Below, piece by piece: positions 1 to 15,943 of a stretch of DNA of 64,000 nucleotides. A program made the translations under genes and the position numbers. Source of the DNA: Leptonemataceae bacterium (GTDB lineage: Bacteria > Spirochaetota > Leptospiria > Leptospirales > Leptonemataceae); assembly GCA_965227295.1 (NCBI GenBank), contig OZ245742.1, positions 4,544,001-4,608,000 on the forward strand. The letters run 5' to 3'. The notes below the pieces were generated by a model, which saw only the letters and a list, made by a program, of their open reading frames with translations, was not told the DNA's origin and searched no databases. The stretch's first letter is position 1, and every line of letters begins with the position of its first letter.

Positions 1-998
1 TCCGGAATCTTAGAGAAGATCGCATCTTAGAAGCAACTCAGATGCGGAAGATTATCTACTCCCATGACGAACTAAAGCTCTTTTCCCCAAATACTTGCCC
101 CTACTGCCTTCGAGAAATCGACAGAAACGCCGGTGCGTGCGTCTGTGGGAAGCCTATCAATGAAGAGGACTACGAAAAATTCTTTTACGATCGCGAGGAA
201 TATCTGGATATCTTGAAGGCGAAGCAAAAGTCCATAGAAACAATTGAGATAGCGATCGAATCAGTATCAAAGGACCTGAAAGCGACGGAGGGGCAACTAA
301 GAAACATAGATGAATTAATAAAAGGAAGCTCAACCGAAATCGAAAACTTGTCACGAGACATCGAAACGGGAATTGACCTATCTGCATTCAATGAGATTGA
401 AAACAAGCTTCTGGGAGTCCGCTCTGAAATACAAGACCTACAAAAGGACTTAGAACTCAGAACACAGCAGGACATCATCGAGAAAGAACACGAGGAAAAT
501 GAAAATGAGTATAAACGACTGCTCGCCGCAAGCAAGAGTTTAGAACTAGAGGCAGCACAGGCCATGGAAGAAATACTTGAAATATTTTCCAAAAAATACA
601 AGGAACTGATCCGCTCATCTCTGCCAGAAGTAAATACGGCCGCAATTCAAGAGGATTACATGCCTGTCATAGATGGCGGAATATATAAACAAGCAAGCTC
701 GGCCGTACCACGCCGACTCCTCTATTACTTCGCCCTACTTCACATTTCGCTACAGCATCCTACCGTGCTCTTCCCACGTTTACTGATTATCGACACACCA
801 GAGAACCTCGGGATAGACTATGACGTATTTATGGACACGCTTCAGGCACTAGAGGCTGTCATCCCCGCCGGCAAAGAAGAACAATATCAAGTAATTCTGT
901 CCACAGGAGTTAATAAATATCCAGAGTCATATGCAGAGTATGTCTTCGAGAGTCTGTCCACGGACAATCGCCTACTTAAAGAAGTAGGGCCTGAATAG
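1..998 (+). CDS. C-terminal part of an SMC/Rad50-like coiled-coil ABC ATPase (Lamassu LmuB / ABC three-component type); 5' end lies outside the window
   Basis: Frame is open upstream of ATG 42 back to the window start. CPYC...CVCG zinc-hook-like motif, long coiled coil, SSA signature-like motif, Walker B LLIIDTP, QVILSTG. Lower GC than the host genes. Confidence 0.65.
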   Translation, partial: RNLREDRILEATQMRKIIYSHDELKLFSPNTCPYCLREIDRNAGACVCGKPINEEDYEKFFYDREEYLDILKAKQKSIETIEIAIESVSKDLKATEGQLRNIDELIKGSSTEIENLSRDIETGIDLSAFNEIENKLLGVRSEIQDLQKDLELRTQQDIIEKEHEENENEYKRLLAASKSLELEAAQAMEEILEIFSKKYKELIRSSLPEVNTAAIQEDYMPVIDGGIYKQASSAVPRRLLYYFALLHISLQHPTVLFPRLLIIDTPENLGIDYDVFMDTLQALEAVIPAGKEEQYQVILSTGVNKYPESYAEYVFESLSTDNRLLKEVGPE

Positions 999-1746: not shown

Positions 1747-2329
1747 ATTTGTGGCCACAAAGGCGGAGCATTTGTCGAGGCGCGTGGTGCGGTCGGCGGG
1801 AGTTTACCATGGTAAAATCTTTGGCTGACCCGGGCGTGGATCTCGTACCGGTACGGGGCGTGGGGTTGTGGTGGCCTCGCGCTACGCGCGAGTCTTCGAA
1901 GGTAGGTCCGCGGAAATCAGCCTGCCGGCGAGCGCCGCGCGCCTCGACAAATGCGTGGGGCGTGTGGCCACAGAGAACGGACGCGATCAGCGGAGCGATC
2001 ACGGAAAGAACTCACGGAAAGAACTCACGGAAAGAGGGCAAACATCACATGAGATATTGTTAGAGATTAAAGCACCAGGTGCCGCTGAAATCGAGTCCAC
2101 CTGGCAAGAACCCAACTGGATTATATATACGTCAATCGCGGCGACCAAAGACGTCCACGCTAACATATCTCGGCCGAACTCTAACCCCCGCCGCCCAGGT
2201 CGTGTCGTTTTTCTGGACAATCAAGGGAGTTCGAATTTCACGGCCAGCGCCGAGATCCCGCCGCGCACATCGTCGGTAATGCATCTGTGTATTTTGTGTG
2301 CGACGTCACGAAACCGCCGTACATAAATA

Positions 2330-2373
2330 GCGCGTGCAGGCGAAAACCCACCGGGTCTTCGCCTGCACGCGCG
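2330..2373. terminator. Strong GC hairpin after the three-gene arm operon (mirror copy near 7980-8022)
   Basis: GCGCGTGCAGGCGAA...TTCGCCTGCACGCGC, directly after the stop codon. Confidence 0.65.
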
Positions 2374-2379
2374 CGAACG

Positions 2380-2712
2380 TCACCAGCTCCAGCCGATTTC
2401 CTTTAACTGCTCCTTTTCTTCGGCTACGTCTTCTAACAGGTGGTCGGCGATCCGTTGCCAGTCCACTTTTTCGATGGCCCCCTGGAGTAACTCGCGCAAC
2501 AGTTCGGGAAGTTCGAGCCTGTGCAGATACTCCCGGTGACGATCTCTCAAGTGCGTGGCGAGTTGTTCTTCCTCGCCGTCACGAACACAATCGCAGGCAA
2601 TGCCCATAAACAAATCGTTGGTCGCCGTGTCTTTGTACATGCGCTCAGACACACACCACGTTTCGTAGTTGCCCCAACCGCAATAGTATTCGTTACTCCT
2701 TCCAGCCGTCAT
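2380..2712 (-). CDS. Phage/plasmid-type hypothetical protein (YxGWxNYETW motif), left-arm copy
   Basis: 110 aa with YCGWGNYETW and VDWQRIADHL motifs typical of small phage/plasmid proteins. Confidence 0.65.
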   Translation of the reverse strand: MTAGRSNEYYCGWGNYETWCVSERMYKDTATNDLFMGIACDCVRDGEEEQLATHLRDRHREYLHRLELPELLRELLQGAIEKVDWQRIADHLLEDVAEEKEQLKEIGWSW

Positions 2713-2896
2713 CGCAGAGGACCTTCTCCGGCTCTTTGCCGATCAATTCCCGGAGCGGCGGACGCTTACGCAGGTCCGCCGCAATGAGATTGCGAATGTG
2801 CTGTGCCGTGTTCGCGAAGCGCGTGCGCAATTCGTAGCGCATGTCTTCGCTGATGCCGACCAGATACTGAACTGATTTTCTTCCCGGGTCTTTCAT
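2693..2896 (-). CDS. Small protein, possibly ribbon-helix-helix DNA-binding, left-arm copy
   Basis: MKDPGRKSVQYLVGISEDMRYELRTRFANTAQHIRNLIAADL; ATGA overlap with the upstream stop; AGGAGG SD. Confidence 0.55.
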   Translation of the reverse strand: MKDPGRKSVQYLVGISEDMRYELRTRFANTAQHIRNLIAADLRKRPPLRELIGKEPEKVLCDDGWKE

Positions 2897-3366
2897 GCTT
2901 CGGCCTCCTGGTCCAGGTCGTCGAAGAGCGGGTAGAAACGAGTGCTTTTCGGCGCTCCCAGGTAACACGCGCGGCGGAGTTCCTGGTCCCACTCGCAAGC
3001 GACCTGTTGAAGTTCGAGAAACACTTCTCGATTTACTTTTAAGAGGGAATTCAGCCGGGACGGCTGCGGTACCTTCACCGGGGTGTAGACCTCTTTGAAT
3101 TCACCGGTAGTTTCACTGGCGAGCAGAAACGGAAACCACTCATTGTCCGCCGTGATTTCGAACTGCATTTCGCGAGCGCACAGCCAGCGGCCGTTTGCTT
3201 GCTTGATGAACTGCGAAACGCCCAGGGCGGGGCGAGCGGTTGGACCCTCTCCCAGAAACTCGATGACGAGCAGCGGGTATTCTTCGTGCTCCACGCGGAT
3301 GGACTCGCACTGCTTGAGCGCTTCCATGCCTTCGTGACTGACGATGATTTTCTGAATTGTTTCCAT
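2893..3366 (-). CDS. Hypothetical mobile-element protein (DUF6908-like), left-arm copy
   Basis: 157 aa, GGAGG Shine-Dalgarno, LVIEFLGEGP...EMQFEI pattern; identical to 6986-7459. Confidence 0.7.
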   Translation of the reverse strand: METIQKIIVSHEGMEALKQCESIRVEHEEYPLLVIEFLGEGPTARPALGVSQFIKQANGRWLCAREMQFEITADNEWFPFLLASETTGEFKEVYTPVKVPQPSRLNSLLKVNREVFLELQQVACEWDQELRRACYLGAPKSTRFYPLFDDLDQEAEA

Positions 3367-3527
3367 GTGATAGATTCCTCCGGGGGAAGGCTAAACACAC
3401 GGCGGCATACTGCAAGTTTAAACTCAAGGAAAGTTAATTTTTTGCTGACAAAAGCCCGGAGACATGCTAACATCACGAAATGTTACTCTAGTAAATGTCG
3501 ATGCACGAGGTCGCCCGCTTCTCTCTT

Positions 3528-3600
3528 TCAGGGGTGCGGGATTCGAACCCACTTCCCGGGGGACACAGTCCCGGATGTTAGCCGCATACACCAACCCCTA
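3528..3600 (-). tRNA. tRNA-His(GTG), atypical (no G-1/C73)
   Basis: Cloverleaf with anticodon loop CTGTGTC and GGTTCGAATCC T-arm. Confidence 0.75.
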
Positions 3601-3605
3601 TTGAA

Positions 3606-3679
3606 AATCCCGGCGAGGACTCGAACCCCGATCGACGGGGATAGAAGCCCCGTGCTTTTTCCCGTTAAGCTACCGGGAT
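3606..3679 (-). tRNA. tRNA-Arg(TCT)
   Basis: Anticodon arm CGGGG-CTTCTAT-CCCCG; T-loop TTCGAGT. Confidence 0.85.
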
Positions 3680-3682
3680 ACT

Positions 3683-3755
3683 TCGAAGCGGCTGGAATCG
3701 AACCAACACCAACGGCATATCAGAGCGTCGTTCTCAACCGTTAAACTACGCTTCG
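3683..3755 (-). tRNA. tRNA-Ile(GAT)
   Basis: Loop CTGATAT; acceptor CGAAGCG/CGCTTCG; one mismatch in the anticodon stem. Confidence 0.8.
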
Positions 3756-3759
3756 TATG

Positions 3760-3830
3760 CACCACGTAGGGGAGTCGAACCCCTGCTACTCGATCGACAA
3801 TCGGGCGTTCTACCGTTAAACTAATGCGGC
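3760..3830 (-). tRNA. tRNA-Asp(GTC)
   Basis: Loop TTGTCGA; T-loop TTCGACT; G discriminator. Confidence 0.8.
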
Positions 3831-3836
3831 AAACTG

Positions 3837-3910
3837 TAGGGCCCGCGGGACTCGAACCCGCAATCTCCAGATTCGTAATCTGATGCCTTGATCCATTTGG
3901 CCAGGGCCCT
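3837..3910 (-). tRNA. tRNA-Arg(ACG)
   Basis: TCAGA-TTACGAA-TCTGG arm. Confidence 0.88.
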
Positions 3911-3913
3911 GTG

Positions 3914-3987
3914 TTGGACTTGCAGGACTCGAACCTGCGGCCTTCCGCCTCGGAAGCGGGTGCTCTTTCCCTCTGAGCTAAAGTCCA
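3914..3987 (-). tRNA. tRNA-Arg(CCG)
   Basis: CCGC-TTCCGAG-GCGG arm. Confidence 0.85.
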
Positions 3988-3990
3988 GTG

Positions 3991-4061
3991 TGGAGCCGGT
4001 GGGAATCGAACCCACATCTGTTGCTTGCAAAACAAAGATTCTCCCGTTAAACTACGGCCCC
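3991..4061 (-). tRNA. tRNA-Ala(TGC)
   Basis: Loop TTTGCAA; G3:U70 alanine identity pair present. Confidence 0.85.
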
Positions 4062-4064
4062 GTG

Positions 4065-4138
4065 TACGGGCTGCTGGATTCGAACCAGCGATCTCCTGTT
4101 TGTAAGACAGGCGTTCTGACCTGCTAAACTAAGCCCGT
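4065..4138 (-). tRNA. tRNA-Val(TAC)
   Basis: CCTGT-CTTACAA-ACAGG arm. Confidence 0.9.
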
Positions 4139-4141
4139 GTG

Positions 4142-4213
4142 TTGCGGCGAAAGGAATTGAACCTCCGTAGGACGGGTTATGAGCCCGTTGCATCGCCACT
4201 ATGCTACACCGCA
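4142..4213 (-). tRNA. tRNA-Met(CAT), initiator-like
   Basis: ACGGG-CTCATAA-CCCGT with three consecutive G-C pairs; weak U1-A72 pair. Confidence 0.8.
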
Positions 4214-4219
4214 ATGTTT

Positions 4220-4294
4220 TGCCCGGTGCATGGATTCGAACCTGCAACCAGCGGTTTACAAAACCGCCGCTCTAACCATTGGAGCTAACCGGGC
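4220..4294 (-). tRNA. tRNA-Thr(TGT)
   Basis: GCGGT-TTTGTAA-ACCGC arm. Confidence 0.9.
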
Positions 4295-4297
4295 GTG

Positions 4298-4369
4298 TGC
4301 ATCAGCAGGGAATCGAACCCTGATGATCTGCTTGGAAGACAGACATGTTGGCCGTTACATCACTGATGC
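4298..4369 (-). tRNA. tRNA-Gly(TCC)
   Basis: TCTGT-CTTCCAA-GCAGA arm. Confidence 0.88.
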
Positions 4370-4373
4370 GTAT

Positions 4374-4447
4374 TCGTCGGGTTCGGGATCGAACCGAATT
4401 CTCTCGCTTTTCAGGCGAGCGCTCATGACCACACCTGCTCCCCGACG
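4374..4447 (-). tRNA. tRNA-Phe(GAA)
   Basis: CTCGC-CTGAAAA-GCGAG arm; weak D-arm. Confidence 0.8.
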
Positions 4448-4504
4448 TTCGTCTTGTTCTTCTTAAAGTCACTTTCGCTCATATTTACTCCTTAGTGCGA
4501 AATG

Positions 4505-4576
4505 TGGGTCCGGTGGGATTCGAACCCACGGCCATCCGATTAAAAGTCGGATGCTCTACCCCCGAGCTCCGGACCC
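4505..4576 (-). tRNA. tRNA-Lys(TTT)
   Basis: TCCGA-CTTTTAA-TCGGA arm. Confidence 0.9.
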
Positions 4577-4641
4577 GCTATTCTCTAAATGTCTTCTTGT
4601 CATCTTCGCTCTTCATGGCGTATCTCCTGTTGCTTATGATG

Positions 4642-4714
4642 TGCACCGCAAGAGACTCGAACTCTTCCCTGCTGCATGGCACACAGCTATGCTTGCCACT
4701 AACACCAGCGATGC
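4642..4714 (-). tRNA. tRNA-Gly(GCC)
   Basis: GCTGT-GTGCCAT-GCAGC arm. Confidence 0.8.
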
Positions 4715-4723
4715 GTTTAAACG

Positions 4724-4757
4724 AAAAAACCCTCCAGGGAGTCGGCCGGGGAGGGTT
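4724..4757 (-). terminator. Attenuator terminator of tRNA block 4
   Basis: AACCCTCC...GGAGGGTT followed by TTTT on the minus strand, directly before tRNA-Gly. Confidence 0.85.
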
Positions 4758-4784
4758 CTTCATGAATGCGTTTGCAGATTCTTC

Positions 4785-4901
4785 TCAGCAACGCATGCGC
4801 AGAACTCCTCCGGCGATCCGGCCGTCCTTATGGCCCGCATCGATCCGCATCCCGATAAATCGGGCGGTTCTCACAACCGTTGCTGTTACTGTTAAGCTCA
4901 T
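4785..4901 (-). CDS. Leader peptide of block 4, MSLTVTATVVRTARFIGMRIDAGHKDGRIAGGVLRMRC
   Basis: Codons 4-33 use only the 11 amino acids of the downstream tRNAs. Only synonymous changes in copy B (13977-14093). Confidence 0.85.
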   Translation of the reverse strand: MSLTVTATVVRTARFIGMRIDAGHKDGRIAGGVLRMRC

Positions 4902-4951
4902 GATAGAATACTCAGACGAATCCCTTGTTAAATTTCTTATAAAAATATCTT

Positions 4952-5023
4952 TGCCGACGCAGGGAATCGAAACCTGATTACCGCAGTGAAAGTGCGAGGT
5001 CCTTGCCTTTAGACGACGCCGGC
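4952..5023 (-). tRNA. tRNA-Glu(TTC)
   Basis: Loop CTTTCAC; T-stem imperfect in copy A and intact in copy B. Confidence 0.8.
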
Positions 5024-5119
5024 GATTTGAGTTGAAACGTAGTTAGGTCCACGTTCCCGTTCTCGCGGCATCGCTCCAGCTGACACGTATGTACGTCCTG
5101 CGCGGTTCATTATACTATG

Positions 5120-5190
5120 AGACATGGGTGGGATTCGAACCCACGTAAACGGCTTTGCAGACCGCCCGCTGGCCTCTCGCGCACCATGTC
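5120..5190 (-). tRNA. tRNA-Cys(GCA)
   Basis: GCGGT-CTGCAAA-GCCGT arm; U discriminator. Confidence 0.88.
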
Positions 5191-5285
5191 GGGTTTACTC
5201 TGGCTTGCGGCGGTCGGTAACATCGTTCTCTGTCTTCCATATCTCCCTCATAACACTTGAAAAATAAGCAAAATGCCCATAAACG

Positions 5286-5319
5286 AAAAAAGGCGAGCCG
5301 TTGATCCGGGCTCGCCTTT
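5286..5319 (-). terminator. Attenuator terminator of tRNA block 3
   Basis: AAAGGCGAGCC...GGCTCGCCTTTTTT. Confidence 0.88.
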
Positions 5320-5343
5320 CGCATCCAGCAGGTTACACTGAAT

Positions 5344-5451
5344 CTAAGACGAGCGCATGACTCCCTGAAACACATCACGCTCACAACCCGCATGAATCAT
5401 GCCGGCCTTCGCGAGGTCTCGTTCCGTTCTATGTTGGCGCTTCGGCGACAT
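5344..5451 (-). CDS. Leader peptide of block 3, MSPKRQHRTERDLAKAGMIHAGCERDVFQGVMRSS (alternative start 5400)
   Basis: Adjacent Cys-Glu codons; the stop overlaps GCTCGTCTT, which complements the terminator 5' arm; frame conserved in copy B (13375-13482). Confidence 0.65.
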   Translation of the reverse strand: MSPKRQHRTERDLAKAGMIHAGCERDVFQGVMRSS

Positions 5452-5531
5452 TCCGTTTCCTGAATACTTACTTGGTATTCGACGTCAACAACTTCATAAA
5501 GATTTAAATATTTTTTTCATGGAACTCAATG

Positions 5532-5604
5532 TTCCGGGAGATGGATTCGAACCATCAACCCCCGACTTCAAAGGCCGGTGTTCTACCCGTTGAACTACCC
5601 CGGA
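5532..5604 (-). tRNA. tRNA-Gln(TTG)
   Basis: CCGGC-CTTTGAA-GTCGG arm. Confidence 0.88.
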
Positions 5605-5612
5605 ATGAGTTG

Positions 5613-5684
5613 CACCGGAGGCAGGACTCGAACCTGCATAGAACGCATTAACATTGCGTCGCCTTACCATTAGGCTACTCCGGT
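5613..5684 (-). tRNA. tRNA-Asn(GTT)
   Basis: ACGCA-ATGTTAA-TGCGT arm. Confidence 0.88.
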
Positions 5685-5688
5685 ATTC

Positions 5689-5766
5689 TGGCAGAGGGAA
5701 CAGGATTCGAACCTGTGAACATCGGATTTGGAGTCCGACAGCTTGGACCGCTCGACTCATCCCTCT
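5689..5766 (-). tRNA. tRNA-Trp(CCA), with encoded 3' CCA
   Basis: TCGGA-CTCCAAA-TCCGA arm. Confidence 0.88.
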
Positions 5767-5769
5767 ATG

Positions 5770-5842
5770 TCGGCGTGGTGGGACTTGAACCCACGACCCC
5801 CGGTTCCCGAAACCGGTGCTCTACACCCTGAGCTATACGCCG
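5770..5842 (-). tRNA. tRNA-Pro(CGG)
   Basis: CCGGT-TTCGGGA-ACCGG arm; C1-G72, A73. Confidence 0.9.
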
Positions 5843-5845
5843 GAT

Positions 5846-5882
5846 AATAAAAAACCCCCTCAAGCTTCCGCCGGAGGGGGTT
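5846..5882 (-). terminator. Attenuator terminator of tRNA block 2
   Basis: AACCCCCTC...GAGGGGGTTTTTTATT. Confidence 0.88.
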
Positions 5883-5911
5883 CTCGCGCAAACGCGCTGT
5901 TGCTCAGAGCA

Positions 5912-5983
5912 CTACACGACCACCTCCAGGCAGATGCCGGGATTCTGTTGGGGCCAGTTGCTCTGTGGGAAAAACATGCTCAT
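5912..5983 (-). CDS. Leader peptide of block 2, MSMFFPQSNWPQQNPGICLEVVV
   Basis: PQSNWPQQNP control run matches the Pro/Trp/Asn/Gln tRNAs. Copy B (12689-12754) is 6 nt shorter at the 5' end with the frame preserved. Confidence 0.88.
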   Translation of the reverse strand: MSMFFPQSNWPQQNPGICLEVVV

Positions 5984-6087
5984 CACGTTTACCTGAAGTT
6001 AAGAGACGACGGTTTTCGAGAAATCCTTAACGAAAATATATTTTTTGGAACGAAAGCTTCGCTTTGCCTCGTCTCATCTACCGTATC

Positions 6088-6156
6088 ATGAACGGTATGT
6101 TACTATCATCGCTGTATCTTCTCAGCTCCGGCGGCATGCGGGAGGCGGCGATGTAG
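6088..6156 (+). CDS. Leader peptide of block 1, MNGMLLSSLYLLSSGGMREAAM (alternative start 6097)
   Basis: Ten consecutive Leu/Ser/Tyr codons, all different; identical in copy B (12516-12584, minus strand). Confidence 0.9.
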   Translation: MNGMLLSSLYLLSSGGMREAAM

Positions 6157-6184
6157 TACGCGCAGACAGTTTTCTGTCTTCGAG

Positions 6185-6224
6185 AAGCCCCTCCCGGTGA
6201 ACCCGCGAGGGGCTTTTTGTTTTT
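6185..6224 (+). terminator. Attenuator terminator of tRNA block 1
   Basis: AAGCCCCTC...GAGGGGCTT followed by TTTGTTTTT. Confidence 0.88.
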
Positions 6225-6228
6225 AAAC

Positions 6229-6315
6229 GCGCTGCTTTCCTCCTGCCGGTCTGTAAAGCCGGGGTCGTTAAACGAGGAGGTCGGGAGACGAGAGGTTCAA
6301 ATCCTCGGCAGCGCA
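6229..6315 (+). tRNA. tRNA-Tyr(GTA)-like RNA lacking a normal D-arm
   Basis: Acceptor GCGCTGCT/GGCAGCGC; arm CCGGT-CTGTAAA-GCCGG; T-arm GAGG-TTCAAAT-CCTC. Confidence 0.65.
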
Positions 6316-6319
6316 TACT

Positions 6320-6403
6320 GGATAGATGCCCGAGTGGTAAGGGACCCGTTTCGAAAACGGAGGTCGGCGGTTCGTCGCGTGGGTTCGATTCCTACTCTAT
6401 CCG
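6320..6403 (+). tRNA. tRNA-Ser(CGA)
   Basis: Loop TTCGAAA, long variable arm, G73. Confidence 0.88.
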
Positions 6404-6409
6404 CATTAC

Positions 6410-6493
6410 GGAGGGATGACCGAGTGGTAAGGTATCCGGTTGGAAGCCGGTGGTCATCGATGAGATGCGAAGGTTCGATTCCTTCTCCCTCCG
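6410..6493 (+). tRNA. tRNA-Ser(GGA)
   Basis: Loop TTGGAAG, long variable arm, G73. Confidence 0.88.
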
Positions 6494-6499
6494 AGAAAT

Positions 6500-6584
6500 G
6501 GAACAGTGGCCGAGAGGTAAGGCAGCGGTCCGCTAAACCGTGGTCGTCGTAACAGACGCGGAGGTTCGATTCCTCCCTGTTCCG
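6500..6584 (+). tRNA. tRNA-Ser(GCT)
   Basis: GCGGT-CCGCTAA-ACCGT arm (C33), long variable arm. Confidence 0.85.
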
Positions 6585-6587
6585 CAG

Positions 6588-6662
6588 CGAGCGATAGCCC
6601 AATCAGGCAGAGGCAGTCGACTTAAAATCGGCAGAGTGCGGGTTCGATTCCCGCTCGCTCAA
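6588..6662 (+). tRNA. tRNA-Leu(TAA), short variable loop
   Basis: GTCGA-CTTAAAA-TCGGC arm. Confidence 0.82.
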
Positions 6663-6665
6663 AAC

Positions 6666-6738
6666 GCATCCGTAGCCCAACGGTAGAGGCACCAGGTCGA
6701 GAGCCTGGTCAGTGCAGGTTCGAATCCGGCCGGATGCA
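6666..6738 (+). tRNA. tRNA-Leu(GAG), short variable loop
   Basis: CCAGG-TCGAGAG-CCTGG arm (C33). Confidence 0.75.
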
Positions 6739-6741
6739 CAC

Positions 6742-6814
6742 GGGGACGTAGCCCAACGGCAGAGGCAGCACGCTCAGAACGTGTCCAGTGTGAGTTCGAA
6801 TCTCGCCGCCCCCA
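6742..6814 (+). tRNA. tRNA-Leu(CAG), short variable loop
   Basis: GCACG-CTCAGAA-CGTGT arm. Confidence 0.82.
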
Positions 6815-6985
6815 TAGAGTCTCCACTGAAGAGATTTGCGACCTCGTGCATCGACATTTACTAGAGTAACATTTCGTGATGTTAGCATGTCTCCGGGCTT
6901 TTGTCAGCAAAAAATTAACTTTCCTTGAGTTTAAACTTGCAGTATGCCGCCGTGTGTTTAGCCTTCCCCCGGAGGAATCTATCAC

Positions 6986-7459
6986 ATGGAAACAATTCAG
7001 AAAATCATCGTCAGTCACGAAGGCATGGAAGCGCTCAAGCAGTGCGAGTCCATCCGCGTGGAGCACGAAGAATACCCGCTGCTCGTCATCGAGTTTCTGG
7101 GAGAGGGTCCAACCGCTCGCCCCGCCCTGGGCGTTTCGCAGTTCATCAAGCAAGCAAACGGCCGCTGGCTGTGCGCTCGCGAAATGCAGTTCGAAATCAC
7201 GGCGGACAATGAGTGGTTTCCGTTTCTGCTCGCCAGTGAAACTACCGGTGAATTCAAAGAGGTCTACACCCCGGTGAAGGTACCGCAGCCGTCCCGGCTG
7301 AATTCCCTCTTAAAAGTAAATCGAGAAGTGTTTCTCGAACTTCAACAGGTCGCTTGCGAGTGGGACCAGGAACTCCGCCGCGCGTGTTACCTGGGAGCGC
7401 CGAAAAGCACTCGTTTCTACCCGCTCTTCGACGACCTGGACCAGGAGGCCGAAGCATGA
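6986..7459 (+). CDS. Hypothetical protein (DUF6908-like), right-arm copy
   Basis: Identical to 2893-3366. Confidence 0.7.
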   Translation: METIQKIIVSHEGMEALKQCESIRVEHEEYPLLVIEFLGEGPTARPALGVSQFIKQANGRWLCAREMQFEITADNEWFPFLLASETTGEFKEVYTPVKVPQPSRLNSLLKVNREVFLELQQVACEWDQELRRACYLGAPKSTRFYPLFDDLDQEAEA

Positions 7460-7659
7460 AAGACCCGGGAAGAAAATCAGTTCAGTATCTGGTCGGCATC
7501 AGCGAAGACATGCGCTACGAATTGCGCACGCGCTTCGCGAACACGGCACAGCACATTCGCAATCTCATTGCGGCGGACCTGCGTAAGCGTCCGCCGCTCC
7601 GGGAATTGATCGGCAAAGAGCCGGAGAAGGTCCTCTGCGATGACGGCTGGAAGGAGTAA
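7456..7659 (+). CDS. Small putative RHH DNA-binding protein, right-arm copy
   Basis: ATGA coupling to the upstream gene; AGGAGG SD. Confidence 0.55.
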   Translation: MKDPGRKSVQYLVGISEDMRYELRTRFANTAQHIRNLIAADLRKRPPLRELIGKEPEKVLCDDGWKE

Positions 7660-7972
7660 CGAATACTATTGCGGTTGGGGCAACTACGAAACGTGGTGTG
7701 TGTCTGAGCGCATGTACAAAGACACGGCGACCAACGATTTGTTTATGGGCATTGCCTGCGATTGTGTTCGTGACGGCGAGGAAGAACAACTCGCCACGCA
7801 CTTGAGAGATCGTCACCGGGAGTATCTGCACAGGCTCGAACTTCCCGAACTGTTGCGCGAGTTACTCCAGGGGGCCATCGAAAAAGTGGACTGGCAACGG
7901 ATCGCCGACCACCTGTTAGAAGACGTAGCCGAAGAAAAGGAGCAGTTAAAGGAAATCGGCTGGAGCTGGTGA
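7640..7972 (+). CDS. Phage/plasmid-type hypothetical protein, right-arm copy
   Basis: Identical to 2380-2712. Confidence 0.65.
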   Translation: MTAGRSNEYYCGWGNYETWCVSERMYKDTATNDLFMGIACDCVRDGEEEQLATHLRDRHREYLHRLELPELLRELLQGAIEKVDWQRIADHLLEDVAEEKEQLKEIGWSW

Positions 7973-8316
7973 CGTTCGCGCGCGTGCAGGCGAAGACCCG
8001 GTGGGTTTTCGCCTGCACGCGCTATTTATGTACGGCGGTTTCGTGACGTCGCACACAAAATACACAGATGCATTACCGACGATGTGCGCGGCGGGATCTC
8101 GGCGCTGGCCGTGAAATTCGAACTCCCTTGATTGTCCAGAAAAACGACACGACCTGGGCGGCGGGGGTTAGAGTTCGGCCGAGATATGTTAGCGTGGACG
8201 TCTTTGGTCGCCGCGATTGACGTATATATAATCCAGTTGGGTTCTTGCCAGGTGGACTCGATTTCAGCGGCACCTGGTGCTTTAATCTCTAACAATATCT
8301 CATGTGATGTTTGCCC

Positions 8317-9328
8317 TCTTTCCGTGAGTTCTTTCCGTGAGTTCTTTCCGTGAGTTCTTTCCGTGAGTTCTTTCCGTGAGTTCTTTCCGTGAGTTCTTTC
8401 CGTGAGTTCTTTCCGTGAGTTCTTTCCGTGAGTTCTTTCCGTGAGTTCTTTCCGTGAGTTCTTTCCGTGAGTTCTTTCCGTGAGTTCTTTCCGTGAGTTC
8501 TTTCCGTGAGTTCTTTCCGTGAGTTCTTTCCGTGAGTTCTTTCCGTGAGTTCTTTCCGTGAGTTCTTTCCGTGAGTTCTTTCCGTGAGTTCTTTCCGTGA
8601 GTTCTTTCCGTGAGTTCTTTCCGTGAGTTCTTTCCGTGAGTTCTTTCCGTGAGTTCTTTCCGTGAGTTCTTTCCGTGAGTTCTTTCCGTGAGTTCTTTCC
8701 GTGAGTTCTTTCCGTGAGTTCTTTCCGTGAGTTCTTTCCGTGAGTTCTTTCCGTGAGTTCTTTCCGTGAGTTCTTTCCGTGAGTTCTTTCCGTGAGTTCT
8801 TTCCGTGAGTTCTTTCCGTGAGTTCTTTCCGTGAGTTCTTTCCGTGAGTTCTTTCCGTGAGTTCTTTCCGTGAGTTCTTTCCGTGAGTTCTTTCCGTGAG
8901 TTCTTTCCGTGAGTTCTTTCCGTGAGTTCTTTCCGTGAGTTCTTTCCGTGAGTTCTTTCCGTGAGTTCTTTCCGTGAGTTCTTTCCGTGAGTTCTTTCCG
9001 TGAGTTCTTTCCGTGAGTTCTTTCCGTGAGTTCTTTCCGTGAGTTCTTTCCGTGAGTTCTTTCCGTGAGTTCTTTCCGTGAGTTCTTTCCGTGAGTTCTT
9101 TCCGTGAGTTCTTTCCGTGAGTTCTTTCCGTGAGTTCTTTCCGTGAGTTCTTTCCGTGAGTTCTTTCCGTGAGTTCTTTCCGTGAGTTCTTTCCGTGAGT
9201 TCTTTCCGTGAGTTCTTTCCGTGAGTTCTTTCCGTGAGTTCTTTCCGTGAGTTCTTTCCGTGAGTTCTTTCCGTGAGTTCTTTCCGTGAGTTCTTTCCGT
9301 GAGTTCTTTCCGTGAGTTCTTTCCGTGA
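8317..9328. repeat. Perfect 13-bp tandem repeat (TCTTTCCGTGAGT), ~78 copies
   Basis: 1012 bp of invariant units; the mirror site 1999-2035 has ~2.8 units. Confidence 0.97.
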
Positions 9329-11680: not shown

Positions 11681-11799
11681 CACATGGCGGCATATTACAA
11701 GTTTAAACTCAAGGAAAGTTAATTTTTTGCTGACAAAATCCTGGAGACATGCTAACATCACGCAATGTTACTCTAGTAAATGTCGATGCACGAGATCGC
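11681..11799. repeat. Truncated left arm of tRNA array B
   Basis: Diverged copy of ~3396-3514. Confidence 0.9.
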
Positions 11800-11822
11800 A
11801 AATCTCTTCAATGGAGACTATA

Positions 11823-12443
11823 TGGGGACGGTGAGACTCGAACTCACACTAGACACGTTCTGAGCGTGCTGCCTCTACCGCGAATGTAAGCAGTTGCTCC
11901 CGGGTGGTCGCAACTGCGGCGGTTCAGACTGCTTCGCAGTCTGGGCTACGGATGCGTTTCGAGCGAGCGGGAATCGAACCCGCACTCTGCCGATTTTAAG
12001 TCGACTGCCTCTGCCTGATTGGGCTATCGCTCGCTGCGGAACAGGGAGGAATCGAACCTCCGCGTCTGTTACGACGACCACGGTTTAGCGGACCGCTGCC
12101 TTACCTCTCGGCCACTGTTCCAATTTCCGGAGGGAGAAGGAATCGAACCTTCGCGCCTGTTAAGACGACCGCCGGCTTCCAACCGGATACCTTACCACTC
12201 GGTCATCCCTCCACGCTGCGGATAGAGTAGGAATCGAACCCACGCGACGAACCGCCGACCTCCGTTTTCGAAACGGGTCCCTTACCACTCGGGCATCTAT
12301 CCAGTATGCGCTGCCGAGGATTTGAACCTCTCGTCACCCGACCTCCTCGTTTAACGAGTAAACTGTACCTTGCTGCGCAAGCCTTGACTTACTACCGCCT
12401 TTCAGTTGCTGGCGTTTACAGACCGGCAGGAGGAAAGCAGCGC
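11823..12443 (-). tRNA. Array B block 1: Tyr-like (insertion), Ser CGA, Ser GGA, Ser GCT, Leu TAA, chimeric Leu GAG/CAG (insertion)
   Basis: Homologous to 6229-6814 in inverted orientation; leader at 12516-12584 and terminator retained. Confidence 0.88.
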
Positions 12444-12823
12444 GTTTAAAAAGAAAAAGCCCCTCGCGGGTTTACCGGGAGGGGCTTCTCGAAGACAGAG
12501 AACTGTCCGCGCGTACTACATCGCCGCCTCCCGCATGCCGCCGGAGCTGAGAAGATACAGCGATGATAGTAACATACCGTTCATGATACGGTACATGAGA
12601 CGAGGCAAAGCGAAGCTTTCGTTCCAAAAAATATATTTTCGTTAAGAATTTCTCGAAAACCGTCGTCTCTTAACTTCAGGTAAACGTGATGCACTTCCCA
12701 CAGAGCAACTGGCCCCAACAGAATCCCGGCATCTGCCTGGAGGTGGTCGTGTAGTGCTCTGAGCAACAGCGCGTTTGCGCGAGAACCCCCTCCGGCGGAA
12801 GCTTGAGGGGGTTTTTTATTATC

Positions 12824-13294
12824 CGGCGTGTAGCTCAGGGTGTAGAGCACCGGTATCGGGAACCGGGGGTCGTGGGTTCAAGTCCCACCACGCCGACATA
12901 GAGGGATGAGTCGAGCGGTCCAGGCTGTCGGACTCCAAATCCGATGTTCACAGGTTTTTGTGCATGGATGCACTTATGCCGCGGAGGACAGGAAGTCCGG
13001 GAGCGGCCGAATCCTGAAAGAGGAAGATGCTACGCATCTTTCATCTTACTGACGCGCTGCGCTTGTCCCTCTGCCAGAATACCGGAGTAGCCTAATGGTA
13101 AGGCGACGCACTGTTAATGCGTTCTATGCAGGTTCGAGTCCTGCCTCCGGTGCAACTCATTCCGGGGTAGTTCAACGGGTAGAACACCGGCCTTTGAAGT
13201 CGGGGGCGCAAATAGACTTTTGCCTTATGGCAAAAGTCGGCGGTTCGGAGTTGTGCGGCAACGCACAACTCCGGGTCCTCACCATCTCCCGGAG
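12824..13294 (+). tRNA. Array B block 2: Pro CGG, Trp CCA (two insertions), Asn GTT, Gln TTG (T-arm replaced by an insertion)
   Basis: Homologous to 5532-5842; leader at 12689-12754 and terminator retained. Confidence 0.88.
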
Positions 13295-13635
13295 CATTGA
13301 GTTCTATGAAAAAAATATTTAAATCTTTATGAAGTTGTTGACGTCGAATACCGAGTAAGTAATCAGGAAACGGAATGTCGCAGAAGCGCCTACAGACAAC
13401 GGAACGAGACCTCGCGAAGGCCGGCATGATTCATGCGGGTTGTGAGCGTGATGTGTTTCAGGGAGTCATGCGCTCGTCTTAGATTCAGTGTAACCTGCTG
13501 GATGCGAAAGGCGAGCCCGGATCAACGGCTCGCCTTTTTTCGTTTATGGGCATTTTGCTTATTTTTCAAGTGTTATGAGGGAGATATGGAAGACAGAGAA
13601 CGATGTTACCGACCGCCGCAAGCCAGAGTAAACCC

Positions 13636-13926
13636 GACATGGTGCGCGAGAGGCCAGCGGGCGGTCTGCAAAGCCGTTTAACGTGGGTTTGTGTGCAGGG
13701 ATGCACTTATGCCGCGAAGGACAGGATGTCCGGGAGCGGCCGAATCCCACCCATGTCTCATAGTACAATGAACCGCGCAGGACGTACATATGTATCAGCC
13801 GGAGCGATGCCGCGAGAGCGGGAACGTGGATCAAGCTACGTTTCAACTCAAATCGCCGGCGTCGTCTAACGGCAAGGACGCTGCACTTTCACTGCGGTAA
13901 TCGGGGTTCGATTCCCCGCGTCGGCA
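13636..13926 (+). tRNA. Array B block 3: Cys GCA (51-nt insertion), Glu TTC
   Basis: Homologous to 4952-5190; leader at 13375-13482 and terminator retained. Confidence 0.88.
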
Positions 13927-14163
13927 AAGGTATTTTCATAAGAAATTTAACAATGGATTCGTCTGAGTATTCTATCATGAGCTTAACAGTAACAGCAACG
14001 GTTGTAAGGACCGCCCGATTTATCGGGATGCGGATCGATGCGGGCCATAAGGACGGCCGGATCGCCGGAGGAGTTCTGCGCATGCGTTGCTGAGAAGAAT
14101 CTACAGACGCATTCATGAAGAACCCTCCCCGGCCGACGCCCTGGAGGGTTTTTTCGTTTATAC

Positions 14164-15529
14164 GCATCGCTGGTGTCAGTGGCAAGCATAGCTGTGTGCC
14201 ATGCAGCAGGGAAGAGTTCGAGTCTCTTGCGGTGCACATTACAGAAAACAGGAGGTACGCCATGAAGAGCGAAGATGACAAGAAGACGTTTAGAGAATAG
14301 CGGGTCCGGAGCTCGGGGGTAGAGCATCCGACTTTTAATCGGATGGCGATCGGTTGAGTGCTTCGCACTCTCATCTTACTCCCGCCTTTCAGTTGGGGGT
14401 TCGAATCCCACCGGACCCACATTTCAAGTAGCGAGGTTAATATGAACGAAAGTGACTTTAAGAATAATAAGACGGAACGTCGGGGAGCAGGTGTGGTCAT
14501 TGCATCCGGTTGAAGCCCGGAGGAATTCGGTTCGATCCCGAGCCCGACGAATACGCATCAGTGATGTAACGGTCAACATGTCTGTCTTCCAAACAGATCA
14601 TCAGGGTTTTTGGCCATGGATGGCCTTATGCCGCGGAGGACAGGAGGTCCGAGAGCGGCCGATTCCCTGCTGATGCACACGCCCGGTTAGCTCCAATGGT
14701 TAGAGCGGCGGTTTTGTGAACCGCTGGTTGCAGGTTCGAATCCGTGCACCGGGCAAAACATTGCGGTGTAGCATAGTGGCGATGCAGCGGGCTCATAACC
14801 CGTCCTACGGAGGTTCAATTCCTTCCGCCGCAACATACGGGCTTAGGACGCAATATAAACGCCTGTCTTACAAACAGGAGATCGCTGGTTTTTGTGCATG
14901 GATGCACTTATGCCGCGGAGGCCAGGAGGGCCGAGAGCGGCCGAATCCGGCAGCCCGTACATGGGGCCGTAGTTTAACGGGAGAATCTTTGTTTTGCAAA
15001 CAAGGGACGTCGGTTCGATTCCGACCGGTTCCACAAATTGGACTTTAGCTCAGAGGGACAGAGCGCCCGTTTCCGAAGCGGTAGGCCGCAGGTTTTTGGC
15101 CACGGATGGCCTTATGCCGCGAAGGACAGGAGGTCCGAGAGCGGCCGAGTCCTGCAAGTCCAACACAGGGCCCTGGCCAAATGGATCAAGGCATCAGATT
15201 ACGAATCTGAAGATTGCGGGTTCGAGTCCCGCGGGCTCTACATGCCGCGTTAGTTTAATGGTAGAACTCCTGATTGTCTCTCAGGGGGCGAGGGTTCGAT
15301 TCCCTCACGTGGTGCATACGAAGCGTAGTTTAACGGTTGAGAACGACGGTCTGATATGCCGTTGGTTAAAGACGAAGATTCAGCGTTATGCGTGAACGCA
15401 TAACGCTGGGTTCGATTCCAGCCGCTTCGAAGCATCCCGGTAATCGGGATTTTCATAAGGGGTTGGTGTATGTGGCTAACATCCGGGATTGTGTCTCCCG
15501 GGCAGTGGGTTCGAATCCCGCACCCCTGA
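14164..15529 (+). tRNA. Array B block 4: Gly GCC, Lys*, Phe, Gly TCC*, Thr, Met, Val*, Ala, Arg CCG*, Arg ACG, Asp, Ile*, (Arg TCT internally deleted), His; * = insertion
   Basis: Homologous to 3528-4714; leader at 13977-14093 and terminator retained. Confidence 0.88.
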
Positions 15530-15542
15530 AAGAGAGAAGCGG

Positions 15543-15943
15543 GCGATCTCATGCATCGATATTTACTAGAGTAACATTGCATGATGTTAGCATGTCGCCA
15601 GGTTTTTGTCAGCAAAAAATTAACTTTCCTTGAGTTTAAACTTGTAATATGCCGCCATGTATTTAGCCTTCCCCCGGAGGAAACTATCACATGGAAACAA
15701 TTCAGAAAATCATCGTCAGTCACGAAGGCATGGAAGCGCTCAAACTGTGCGAGTCCATCCGCGTGGAACACGAAGAATACCCTCTGCTCGTCATAGAGTT
15801 TCTGGGACAGGGGCCCACCGCTCGCCCCGCCGTGGGCGTTTCGCAGTTCATCAAGCAAGCGGGTAAACATCAGCCGGATATGCGCGGCAATCTCCCCTTC
15901 CACAGACAACTTTTTCGATCTACGTTTCGCTGGCTCCGCAGAA
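15543..15943. repeat. Internally deleted right arm of array B
   Basis: 15543-15860 matches 6838-~7155; 15865-15943 matches 11417-11495. Confidence 0.9.

Follow-up and report, generated by a model that had tools for sequence, protein, structure and literature searches.

How is a tRNA array controlled when every one of its gene blocks is headed by a short open reading frame (ORF) and a terminator? The question is raised by positions 3528-6814 of a 64-kb window (the whole stretch analysed, 64,000 nucleotides of a Leptonemataceae bacterium), where 26-27 tRNA genes form a dense cluster of four blocks, one on the + strand and three on the - strand. ARAGORN called 26 genes (20 on the -, 6 on the + strand) for 19 amino acids. 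The Rfam tRNA model matched 24 of these 26 at the gathering score and 25 at E<=1; Gly-GCC (4641-4714) had no match to it even at E<=1, and the scores of tRNA-Phe (30.2 bits) and tRNA-His (34.3 bits) were weak. The initial annotation had counted 27 tRNA-like genes covering all 20 amino acids. The 26 called genes bear this out for 19 amino acids, but the 27th, a tRNA-Tyr-like element with anticodon GTA (about 6231..6315, +), was called neither by ARAGORN, even with relaxed settings, nor by Rfam. Its predicted fold includes the acceptor stem, anticodon arm and T arm but no D arm; a Tyr gene of similar build at another locus, L003, is called by ARAGORN. As some of the array tRNAs are of atypical build, their function is not assured.

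The remainder of block 1 (6320..6814, +; ARAGORN, Rfam) consists of three tRNA-Ser genes (CGA, GGA, GCT) and three short tRNA-Leu genes (TAA, GAG, CAG). The other blocks are on the - strand: block 2 (5531..5842; ARAGORN) carries tRNA-Pro(CGG), Trp, Asn and Gln, block 3 (4952..5190; ARAGORN) tRNA-Cys and tRNA-Glu, and block 4 (3528..4714; ARAGORN, Rfam) 14 tRNA genes, transcribed in the order Gly-GCC, Lys, Phe, Gly-TCC, Thr, Met, Val, Ala, Arg-CCG, Arg-ACG, Asp, Ile, Arg-TCT and His. By the ARAGORN calls the amino-acid sets of the four blocks are disjoint, as had been annotated.

A 22- to 38-codon ORF followed by an intrinsic terminator was indeed found ahead of every block (4/4; ORF and terminator scans). 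On the + strand, leader 1 (L1; 6088..6156, 22 codons plus stop) is followed by a terminator at 6182..6225 (-21.2 to -24.0 kcal/mol), 5 nt before the Tyr-like element. The three remaining cassettes are on the - strand. Leader 2 (L2; 5912..5983, 23 codons plus stop) has its terminator at 5844..5884 (-21.7 to -23.2 kcal/mol), adjoining tRNA-Pro; leader 3 (L3; 5344..5451, 35 codons plus stop) has one at 5281..5320 (-19.4 to -20.7 kcal/mol), ∼90 nt upstream of tRNA-Cys; and leader 4 (L4; 4785..4901, 38 codons plus stop) has one at 4719..4759 (-14.3 to -15.8 kcal/mol), 5 nt before the first block-4 tRNA. All four terminators are a hairpin (-14 to -24 kcal/mol) with a U tract, 3' of the leader ORF. 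A custom scan covering the entire 64-kb window on both strands returned 22 terminator-like sites, eight of which are the four cassettes in the two copies of the array described below; the four strongest of the 22 fall within the array cassettes. A consensus terminator scan missed all four because it allowed loops of only 3-8. Between the divergent leaders 2 and 1 lies an AT-rich spacer (5987..6087), which is taken as a putative promoter region; a consensus promoter scan made no call in it.

The array just described (copy A) is flanked by the arms of a perfect 1516-nt inverted repeat (left, 1999..3514; right, 6838-8353), each with a DUF6908 gene facing outward, and the cassettes sit in the unique segment outside this repeat. 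Sequence comparison and ARAGORN located an inverted second copy, copy B, at 11681..15860, with leaders at 12516-12584(-), 12689-12754(+), 13375-13482(+) and 13977-14093(+). It had been proposed that the cassettes survive in copy B while its tRNAs decay. All four cassettes are kept, but the tRNAs are broken by insertions rather than by point decay, and survival carries little weight because the copies are only 1-7% diverged (93-99% identity); they are too alike for conservation to be judged from them. Within these limits, no leader has acquired a stop or a frameshift between the copies: leader 2 shows a 6-nt indel that keeps the frame, and leader 4 two changes, both synonymous. At and near the terminators, the differences fall mostly in loops or tails. 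Three further short ORFs are also retained in copy B, despite diverged upstream sequence. Two are led by Shine-Dalgarno sequences and occupy long spacers of block 4 on the - strand, one ending at tRNA-Lys (4578-4616) and the other inside tRNA-Phe (4423-4482); the third (5115-5240) starts before tRNA-Cys and reads through it.

Each leader had been described as enriched for the amino acids of its own block. This was observed for L1, L2 and L4, but not for L3. In L1, codons 5-14 are all Leu, Ser or Tyr (10/10), with none among the other 11 codons, and the ORF samples 7/7 block-1 tRNAs. L2 has nine codons for Pro, Gln, Asn or Trp within a stretch of ten. Of the 37 residues of L4, 33 are in the amino-acid set of block 4, and cognate codons are present for 14/14 block tRNAs. 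When 191 other small ORFs from the window served as background, none reached the best 10-codon window of L1 or L2, or the fraction or tRNA coverage of L4. Depending on the null model (200,000 simulated ORFs each), P for the best 10-codon window ranged from 0 to 1e-5 in L1 and from 0 to 5e-6 in L2; for L4, fraction and coverage taken jointly gave a P of 0, i.e. <5e-6, under both models. Overall, P for the three matched leaders lay between about 1e-3 and <5e-6. By contrast, L3 has only 3 of 34 residues in its Cys/Glu set (P about 0.4, simulated ORFs). Its composition fits block 4 instead (24/34 residues in the set, 13/14 tRNAs sampled), the one enrichment seen when leaders were paired with blocks other than their own. 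As the three - strand cassettes stand in series, leader 3 would also gate block 4.

The match does not extend to codons. The leaders had been called codon-matched; however, given the peptide, codons readable by the block tRNAs are no commoner than synonymous usage predicts (observed versus expected: 8 versus 9.7 in L1, 6 versus 8.0 in L2, 28 versus 26.9 in L4). None of the three Pro codons of L2 is readable by the Pro-CGG of its block, and two codons of L1 are unreadable by any block-1 tRNA. The leader-block match is thus at the level of the amino acid and not of the anticodon.

As annotated, the 3' end of each ORF is complementary to the 5' arm of its terminator (4/4 cassettes, 10-13 predicted pairs). 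The leader folds also predict the geometry of ribosome-mediated attenuation, with 1:2, 2:3 and 3:4 alternatives in all four cassettes; the predicted antiterminator strands of leaders 1, 2 and 4 lie at 6137-6149 (+), 5920-5931 (-) and 4802-4821 (-). Before the terminator is synthesized, the control codons (region 1) are predicted to pair with the 3' end of the ORF. A ribosome-footprint model gave a probability of 0.71-1.00 for sequestration of the terminator 5' arm when the A site was on early codons. With the ribosome on the last third, the probability was 0.07-0.25 in L1, L2 and L4, and 0.57 in L3. The terminator is therefore predicted to form only after the ribosome reaches the end of the ORF. 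The model is thermodynamic, not kinetic, and shuffling gave only a moderate control of the switch (7/60, 0/60, 4/60 and 5/60 shuffles reached the observed contrast).

We consider it likely that every tRNA block is under ribosome-mediated, leader-peptide transcription attenuation of the following kind. Transcription would start upstream of the short leader ORF. Smooth translation to the ORF end would leave the ribosome covering the 3' segment of the ORF (region 2), so that the terminator (3:4) forms directly ahead of the first tRNA and transcription stops. A ribosome stalled on the early control codons would leave region 2 free to pair with the terminator 5' arm, blocking the terminator and allowing the tRNA block to be transcribed. 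With control codons for the amino acids of its own tRNAs, a block would be switched on when the matching tRNAs are scarce. Because the leaders carry one to few codons for each of many tRNAs, the design would suit a sensor that responds when any single charged tRNA becomes severely scarce. The observation made in the initial annotation is thus confirmed in part and largely real, and its interpretation as attenuation is partly supported. What the in silico analysis shows is the presence of the ORFs and terminators, their alternative pairings and the match in amino acids; that the leaders are translated, and that a stall leads to read-through, is inferred.

An alternative, which we regard as unlikely, is that the cassettes sense any slowing or absence of ribosomes, triggered for example by antibiotics, ribosome damage or a block to initiation, with the amino-acid match secondary or historical. 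At equilibrium and with no ribosome, the model gives the antiterminator for L2, L3 and L4 (0.73-0.99), as such a general translation-stress switch would predict, but termination for L1 (0.12), and in each of the four cassettes 1:2 pairing would, kinetically, tip an untranslated leader towards termination. The unspecific composition of leader 3 and the absence of a match at the anticodon level are also in its favour, as is the induction of a long array in Anabaena by impaired translation (PMC8421152). However, a generic sensor needs neither compact block-specific runs (10/10 and 9/10) with none elsewhere in the same ORFs nor complete sampling of 7/7 and 14/14 tRNAs.

Considerably less probable is a sensor of amino-acid starvation, in which stalling reports lack of the amino acid and uncharged tRNA feeds, for example, stringent signalling, or in which the sign of control is reversed. 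A match at the amino-acid level only, and the many synonymous and rare codons used by the leaders, would fit it. Against it, extra tRNA gives no relief of amino-acid starvation, the predicted sign is read-through upon stalling, and the array sits in a mobile or defence island rather than in a biosynthetic operon.

We give still less credence to the idea that the terminators simply insulate independent tRNA operons from one another and that the ORFs upstream of them are untranslated chance frames. No Shine-Dalgarno sequence is visible by eye before L1 and L4, the consensus scan called a promoter upstream of none of the four leaders, and none of ten exact look-ups matched a leader ORF in the protein collection, all of which speaks for it. 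The composition statistics, from background ORFs and simulations alike, argue otherwise, as do the in-frame indel between copies, the complementarity of ORF and terminator arm in all four cassettes and the small number of alternative ORFs, at most three per leader region. A terminator directly upstream of the genes that it insulates would also be senseless without control of read-through. Finally, it is barely credible that the ORFs code for small peptides that are functional in their own right, which leaves terminators and alternative pairings unexplained, or that the locus is an assembly artefact, as the 100% identity of the 1516-nt inverted repeat and a 100% matching 78-copy 13-nt tandem repeat might suggest, since the cassettes lie in unique sequence and recur in copy B at less than full identity.

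Leader-peptide attenuators are established in amino-acid operons (trp, his, leu, thr, ilvGMEDA, pheA; PMC1183508), and some of these classical leaders (thr, ilv) respond to several amino acids. The pheST attenuator, with its pheM leader, controls phenylalanyl-tRNA synthetase and so resembles the present cassettes in acting on a component of translation according to the supply of charged tRNA, but its target is a synthetase and it serves one amino acid. With the classical attenuators, the cassettes share a short ORF with regulatory codons, 1:2, 2:3 and 3:4 helices and a terminator before the genes. They differ in regulating tRNA genes rather than biosynthetic enzymes, in having leaders that cover as many as 11 amino acids and 14 tRNA species, each by one to a few codons, and in comprising four units in one array, three of them in series. 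T-box riboswitches sense uncharged tRNA and likewise choose between terminator and antiterminator, but they have a specifier loop and a T-box motif and need no translation; Rfam gave no T-box match at E<=1 within 3400-7000.

Long tRNA arrays (L-arrays) resemble this one: they are supernumerary sets of >20 tRNA genes that were acquired by horizontal transfer and probably stay silent until translation runs into difficulty (PMC8421152). The Anabaena trn operon, an L-array, is controlled by a protein repressor, TrcR, at the promoter and induced by translational stress (PMC8421152); the terms 'leader', 'attenuat-' and 'terminator' were absent from the searched text of PMC8421152 and PMC10272220. 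Such cassettes were also absent from the other long arrays L001, L030, L032, L046, L047, L078 and L080; in L032, of the cyanobacterial or Chloroflexi type, the spacers are heptamer-repeat hairpins without ORFs. No relatives of the array were found.

A leader at the head of a tRNA array was, however, found on two Pseudomonas megaplasmids, pMPPla107 (NZ_CP031226.1) and the plasmid of strain FeN3W (CP136011.1). There an 18-codon Ser-rich ORF heads an array in which Ser, Pro, Thr, Leu and Met genes abound; 15 of 17 residues, including six Ser, are amino acids of the array behind it on one plasmid and 14 of 17 on the other. By eye, the ORF is preceded by a consensus promoter and, on pMPPla107, by a clear Shine-Dalgarno sequence. 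The ORF DNA has diverged between the plasmids; downstream of it are near-invariant switch strands and then, 18-25 nt ahead of the first tRNA, a terminator. The two systems share a short ORF matching the array amino acids, helices that form a switch and a terminator close in front of the first tRNA, but the Pseudomonas leaders are of unrelated sequence, with one cassette per array and a five-strand switch. They are an independent parallel and as such support the attenuation reading. The searched text of the megaplasmid paper (PMC6482414) does not mention the leader.

Attenuation of tRNA gene blocks by leader peptides was not found in the literature searched. The best reading is that the mechanism, ribosome-mediated attenuation, is a known one and that its target, blocks of tRNA genes, would be new. 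The backup set induced by tRNA loss, as initially proposed, may then be what the array provides: its purpose would be to supply spare tRNAs on demand from within a mobile or defence island.

The tRNA cluster at 3528–6814 (array A) is one of two in the 64-kb window, the other being an inverted second copy (array B, hereafter copy B; 11681–15860). ARAGORN called 41 tRNA genes in the window, 26 at 3528–6814 and 15 at 11959–15530. In array A, 20 genes lie on the minus strand (3528–5842) and six on the plus strand (6320–6814), on either side of an AT-rich spacer at 5987–6087, and the array is therefore organized as two divergent transcription units. Its 26 genes in 3287 nt have the number and density of a tRNA array unit, defined in the available text of Tran et al. 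(PMC4758250) as at least 20 tRNA genes at two or more per kb; the available text of PMC8421152 deals with long arrays. The ARAGORN calls agree with the initial annotation in dividing the genes into four blocks with disjoint amino-acid sets: block 1 on the plus strand (Tyr/Ser/Leu), and blocks 2 (Pro/Trp/Asn/Gln), 3 (Cys/Glu) and 4 (14 tRNAs for 11 amino acids) on the minus strand. The Rfam tRNA model recognized 24 of the 26 genes at the gathering score and 25 at E ≤ 1; Gly-GCC had no match, and Phe (30.2 bits) and His (34.3 bits) were weak.

A count of 27 genes covering all 20 amino acids had been proposed. The 27th is a Tyr-like element at ∼6231–6315(+), with an acceptor stem, an anticodon arm bearing GTA and a T arm; it lacks a D arm and was called by neither of the programs tried (ARAGORN and the Rfam tRNA model). 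Full amino-acid coverage consequently depends on this one non-canonical element. A Tyr gene of equally odd build was called by ARAGORN in a Planctomycetota contig (locus L003, 3813–3912); the D-armless build, in which a 5' segment pairs with a long variable region, is common to both. Short tRNA-Leu genes (73–77 nt, without the long variable arm) are common as housekeeping genes in Actinomycetota among the matches listed (loci L004–L123), which means that short Leu genes in the array are no aberration.

As had been described, every block is preceded by a short ORF followed by an intrinsic terminator. Four ATG-started ORFs, the leaders L1–L4, lie upstream of blocks 1–4 on the same strand as the genes that they would regulate: L1 at 6088–6156(+), 22 codons; L2 at 5912–5983(−), 23 codons; L3 at 5344–5451(−), 35 codons; and L4 at 4785–4901(−), 38 codons. 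There was little choice in picking them, since no leader region offers more than three alternative ORFs of at least 20 codons. By eye, weak ribosome-binding sites (AGG/AGGA) lie 8–10 nt before L2 and L3 and none is seen before L1 and L4, which, lacking a visible Shine–Dalgarno sequence, may be leaderless. In all four cassettes (leader ORF plus terminator), a hairpin of −14 to −24 kcal/mol followed by a U tract separates ORF and block. The U tract ends 1–5 nt before the first tRNA in L1, L2 and L4, and ∼90 nt before tRNA-Cys in L3. A consensus terminator scan reported none of the four because it allows loops of 3–8 nt only. A dedicated scan of both strands of the whole window found 22 sites, eight of which are the four cassettes in A and B; the cassette terminators include the four strongest of the 22.

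The amino-acid composition of three leaders follows that of their blocks. In L1, codons 5–14 all specify Leu, Ser or Tyr, as do none of the remaining 11, and a cognate codon is present for each of the seven block tRNAs. In L2, nine of ten codons in one run specify Pro, Gln, Asn or Trp, with none outside the run. In L4, 33 of 37 residues fall within the 11 amino acids of the block and all 14 tRNAs are sampled, including all three Arg and both Gly isoacceptors. None of the 191 background small ORFs of the window matched the best ten-codon window of L1 or L2, nor the fraction or coverage of L4. Among 200,000 simulated ORFs under two null models, P for the best window was 0 to 1e-5 for L1 and 0 to 5e-6 for L2, and no simulated ORF reached the joint fraction and coverage of L4. 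In a leader-by-block matrix the diagonal was highest for L1, L2 and L4. L3 is the exception: only 3 of its 34 residues are Cys or Glu (P ∼0.4). The claim that each ORF is enriched for its own block thus stands for L1, L2 and L4, whose regulatory codons are cognate to the operon's supply, and falls for L3. Of the 14 tRNAs of block 4, L3 does sample 13; that block follows L3 on the same strand, and no terminator intervenes. A Cys-rich alternative frame for L3 was rejected, as it reads across the terminator and would reverse the sign of control.

The correspondence does not extend to codons. With each peptide held fixed and synonymous codon usage taken from nine long window genes, the count of codons that the tRNAs of the block can read was 8 versus 9.7 expected in L1, 6 versus 8.0 in L2 and 28 versus 26.9 in L4. 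Codon-to-anticodon tuning was rejected on these values, which are not raised above expectation. The block's sole Pro tRNA (anticodon CGG) can read none of the Pro codons of L2, three in number. Rare codons are numerous in the leaders. The description of the leaders as ‘codon-matched’ was for these reasons too strong, the match being at the level of amino acids.

Folding of the leaders for alternative states predicted an architecture like that of the trp and his attenuators, in keeping with the attenuation geometry first proposed. In the transcript before the terminator, region 1, which holds the control codons, is predicted to pair with region 2, the 3' end of the ORF, in L1, L2 and L4; in L3 a short early segment takes this role. 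The alternative partner of region 2 is the 5' arm of the terminator, with 10–13 predicted pairs in all four cassettes, bearing out the complementarity that had been noted there. The effect of a ribosome was modelled by masking a 30-nt footprint at each codon and computing sequestration of the terminator 5' arm. With the A site on early codons, the modelled probability of sequestration was 0.71–1.00; with the ribosome on the last third of L1, L2 and L4 it dropped to 0.07–0.25, and in L3 it went from 0.84 to 0.57. Dinucleotide shuffles of the upstream part reached the observed contrast in 7, 0, 4 and 5 of 60 trials for L1–L4, respectively, giving moderate backing to a switch in each cassette and stronger backing to all cassettes together. 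In silico, the leaders form an exclusive antiterminator that depends on ribosome position.

The best-supported reading is that the four cassettes are ribosome-mediated attenuators and that the three on the minus strand stand in series. Its observed basis is computational: ORFs, terminators, alternative helices and the amino-acid correspondence. If the leader ORFs are translated, a ribosome stalling on control codons would lead to read-through, the predicted sign, and the purpose would be a supply of spare tRNAs upon depletion of one species. The main rival is that the cassettes act as a generic translation-stress sensor instead of being tuned to tRNAs. The leaders are mixed, with one to few codons per tRNA, and their strongest response would be to the severe depletion of one tRNA species. 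Strict codon-for-anticodon replacement is a less well placed design, because the match is at the amino-acid level and the Pro codons are mismatched, both of which argue against it. The covariance model of T-box riboswitches had no match at E ≤ 1 within 3400–7000. Overall, ribosome-mediated attenuation of the array is a plausible mechanism; the pattern on which it was proposed is real and striking in three of the four cassettes, and its details were overstated.

Copy B is inverted and 93–99% identical to array A, and all four of its leaders are intact. L1 is identical in the two copies. L2 differs by an in-frame 6-nt indel near its start, L3 by four clustered non-synonymous changes within codons 3–8, and L4 by two changes, both synonymous. 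Of the A/B differences in the terminators or following them, most are located in loops or tails. The initial annotation had set survival of the four cassettes in copy B against decay of its tRNAs; the survival is as described, but at 93–99% identity it is no evidence of selection, and the decay is not random. A ∼51-nt element occupies the same T-loop position in five copy B tRNAs (Trp, Cys, Gly-TCC, Val and Arg-CCG), at 12973–13023, 13706–13756, 14609–14659, 14907–14957 and 15111–15161 (ends approximate), and in one copy the hairpin of the element shows a compensatory double change. The element was found nowhere else in the window, nor in plasmids, phages, the compared loci from other genomes or Rfam; its appearance is that of a miniature insertion element specific to the T loop or of an intron-like insert. 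Further inserts are present in the copy B Tyr, Gln and Trp genes, and three genes are lost. In tRNA-Ile (15319–15430) and tRNA-Lys (14302–14419), inserts of 39 and 46 nt, respectively, lie in the variable region and fold as an extra arm; both genes are still recognized by the Rfam tRNA model (48.6 and 49.4 bits). The Lys and Tyr inserts have an 18-nt motif in common.

The only long spacers of blocks 3 and 4 hold strong Shine–Dalgarno sequences and short ORFs, at 4578–4616(−), 4423–4482(−) and 5115–5240(−), each stopping at the following tRNA or extending into it (Lys, Phe and Cys); two of them are paralogous. All are retained in copy B (14262–14300, 14442–14513 and 13586–13681) despite diverged sequence just upstream. 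Their role may be to load ribosomes or to serve as a second checkpoint.

Array A is flanked by perfect 1516-nt inverted repeats (1999–3514 and 6838–8353), each with an outward-facing DUF6908 gene. The segment between them could be inverted by recombination, and the identity of the repeats may stem from recent conversion or from assembly. The outer ends of the inverted repeat carry a perfect 13-nt tandem repeat, of 77.8 copies (a 78-copy array) at 8317–9328 and 2.8 copies at 1999–2035. In its N-terminal part the DUF6908 protein has a match to a phage protein family whose function is unknown, and the confidently predicted fold of the protein (pLDDT 91) had no match in PDB or BFVD. Three close forms of the protein are present, all on one 5.94-Mb contig, which implies further array copies beside the two other DUF6908 paralogues in the genome; only distant relatives were found among 1.84 billion representatives, and none by tblastn in plasmids or phages. 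A chimeric ORF adjoins copy B only (15691–16542, plus strand), with residues 1–58 93% identical to the DUF6908 protein and the rest a TetR-family regulator.

The G+C content is 0.50–0.55 in the first 16 kb versus ∼0.61 in the remainder of the window. The neighbours of the arrays include a phage-like gene, a group II intron with a reverse transcriptase/maturase ORF between the two copies (9457–11304, minus strand) and a split IS5-family transposase (16814–17759). At the window edge, 3–998(+) encodes the C-terminal part of a Lamassu LmuB-like SMC ATPase (PADLOC E 3e-25), followed by an ORF without family (1006–1746). We interpret the first 16 kb as a bacterial chromosomal island of mobile or defence type.

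No relative of the array was retrieved by searches of plasmids, phages, genome contigs or proteins. Blastn with the whole array against plasmid and phage collections gave single-tRNA matches only, a DUF6908-alignment profile search of genome contigs retrieved no relative, exact look-up of ten ORFs of the array region in a protein collection matched none of the ten, and the codon-aligned antisense ORFs over L4 and L2, used as queries, found nothing. A short tRNA-Leu pattern search of genome contigs returned at least 121 loci, mostly Actinomycetota housekeeping short tRNA-Leu genes, with few arrays among the matches listed.

Ten of the compared loci held at least four tRNAs. A terminator-like site lay within 150 nt upstream of a same-strand tRNA in six of these, one being a false match inside a tRNA. 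The cassettes have parallels in three cases, the first on Pseudomonas megaplasmids, where 18-codon Ser-rich leaders stand before arrays of 15–19 tRNA genes. On the FeN3W megaplasmid (CP136011.1; L002, 14873–15110, minus strand), a consensus promoter, identified by eye, is followed by the 18-codon ORF, a pair of hairpins whose arms are interchangeable, and a terminator 18 nt ahead of the first array gene. The 17 codons after the start include six Ser, two Pro, two Arg, two Leu, one Thr and one Met; the array runs Ser, Ser, Pro, Ser, Ser, Pro, then Thr, Leu, Val, Gly, Arg and Met genes. The homologous cassette heading the array of pMPPla107 (NZ_CP031226.1; L124, 5860–6098, plus strand) has a different 18-codon ORF, with six Ser, three Leu, two Thr, two Pro and two Met, before Ser, Thr, Pro, Leu, Gly, Met and Arg genes. 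By hand arithmetic rather than simulation, at least 15 of 17 residues from a set filling 31 of 61 codons has P ∼1.5e-3. The two plasmids have nearly invariant switch strands but diverged ORF DNA. The predicted consensus fold of the switch has the segment immediately after the stop codon pairing with strand 1, and strand 2 pairing with strand 3 as the antiterminator; masking a ribosome at the stop codon lowered the modelled antiterminator probability from 0.87 to 0.55 and 0.68. No report of this Ser-rich leader and switch was found in the literature.

In a Myxococcota contig (L038), a 53-codon ORF with cognate codons for all ten downstream tRNAs (by eye) is followed by a terminator 34 nt before the first of them, and the modelled switch at the stop codon is sharp, going from 0.92 to 0.22. 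At the Planctomycetota locus L003, three Leu genes clustered with a Tyr gene are preceded by a terminator and a Leu-rich ORF; the folding model gave no ribosome-dependent switch, leaving a weak hint of a parallel. Leader-type cassettes were absent from arrays L032, L078, L030, L046, L047 and L080. Of these, L032 (7017–12341 of a Chloroflexaceae contig) has 33 tRNA genes and, unlike array A, ∼90-nt spacers of inverted heptamer repeats without ORFs. The principle extends beyond the window, yet it is far from universal among arrays.

Bacterial tRNA gene expression is usually explained by promoter strength and by growth-rate and stringent control, with a repressor in one case. Full-text literature searching, with subscription journals outside its coverage, found no description of tRNA genes or arrays controlled by leader-peptide attenuation. 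Neither the available text of the main array papers (PMC8421152, PMC4758250 and PMC10272220) nor that of the pMPPla107 family paper (PMC6482414) contains the words leader, attenuat- or terminator. The array cassettes would be a variant of a known mechanism, attenuation, applied to a new class of genes.

We tentatively propose, judging it slightly less probable than its contrary, that leader-peptide attenuation is a recurrent and so far unrecognized form of self-regulation of tRNA arrays, in which every block tRNA is sampled by codons and any loss switches on the spare set. It would have arisen at least twice, in the island beside the Lamassu-type gene and in the Pseudomonas megaplasmids, as a general tRNA-homeostasis or counter-defence module of mobile elements. 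Anticodon nucleases, toxins that target tRNA or phage-defence systems could be behind the loss that triggers the spare set. If this is true, the ribosome reads the supply of each tRNA and opens the matching genes in a direct feedback loop, a new regulatory logic for stable RNA, and synthetic biology would gain compact and modular sensors for the abundance or charging of selected tRNAs. It would also tie such arrays to conflicts over tRNA, with anticodon nucleases and tRNA-depleting defence, and would explain how silent, horizontally acquired tRNA arrays stay cheap yet useful.
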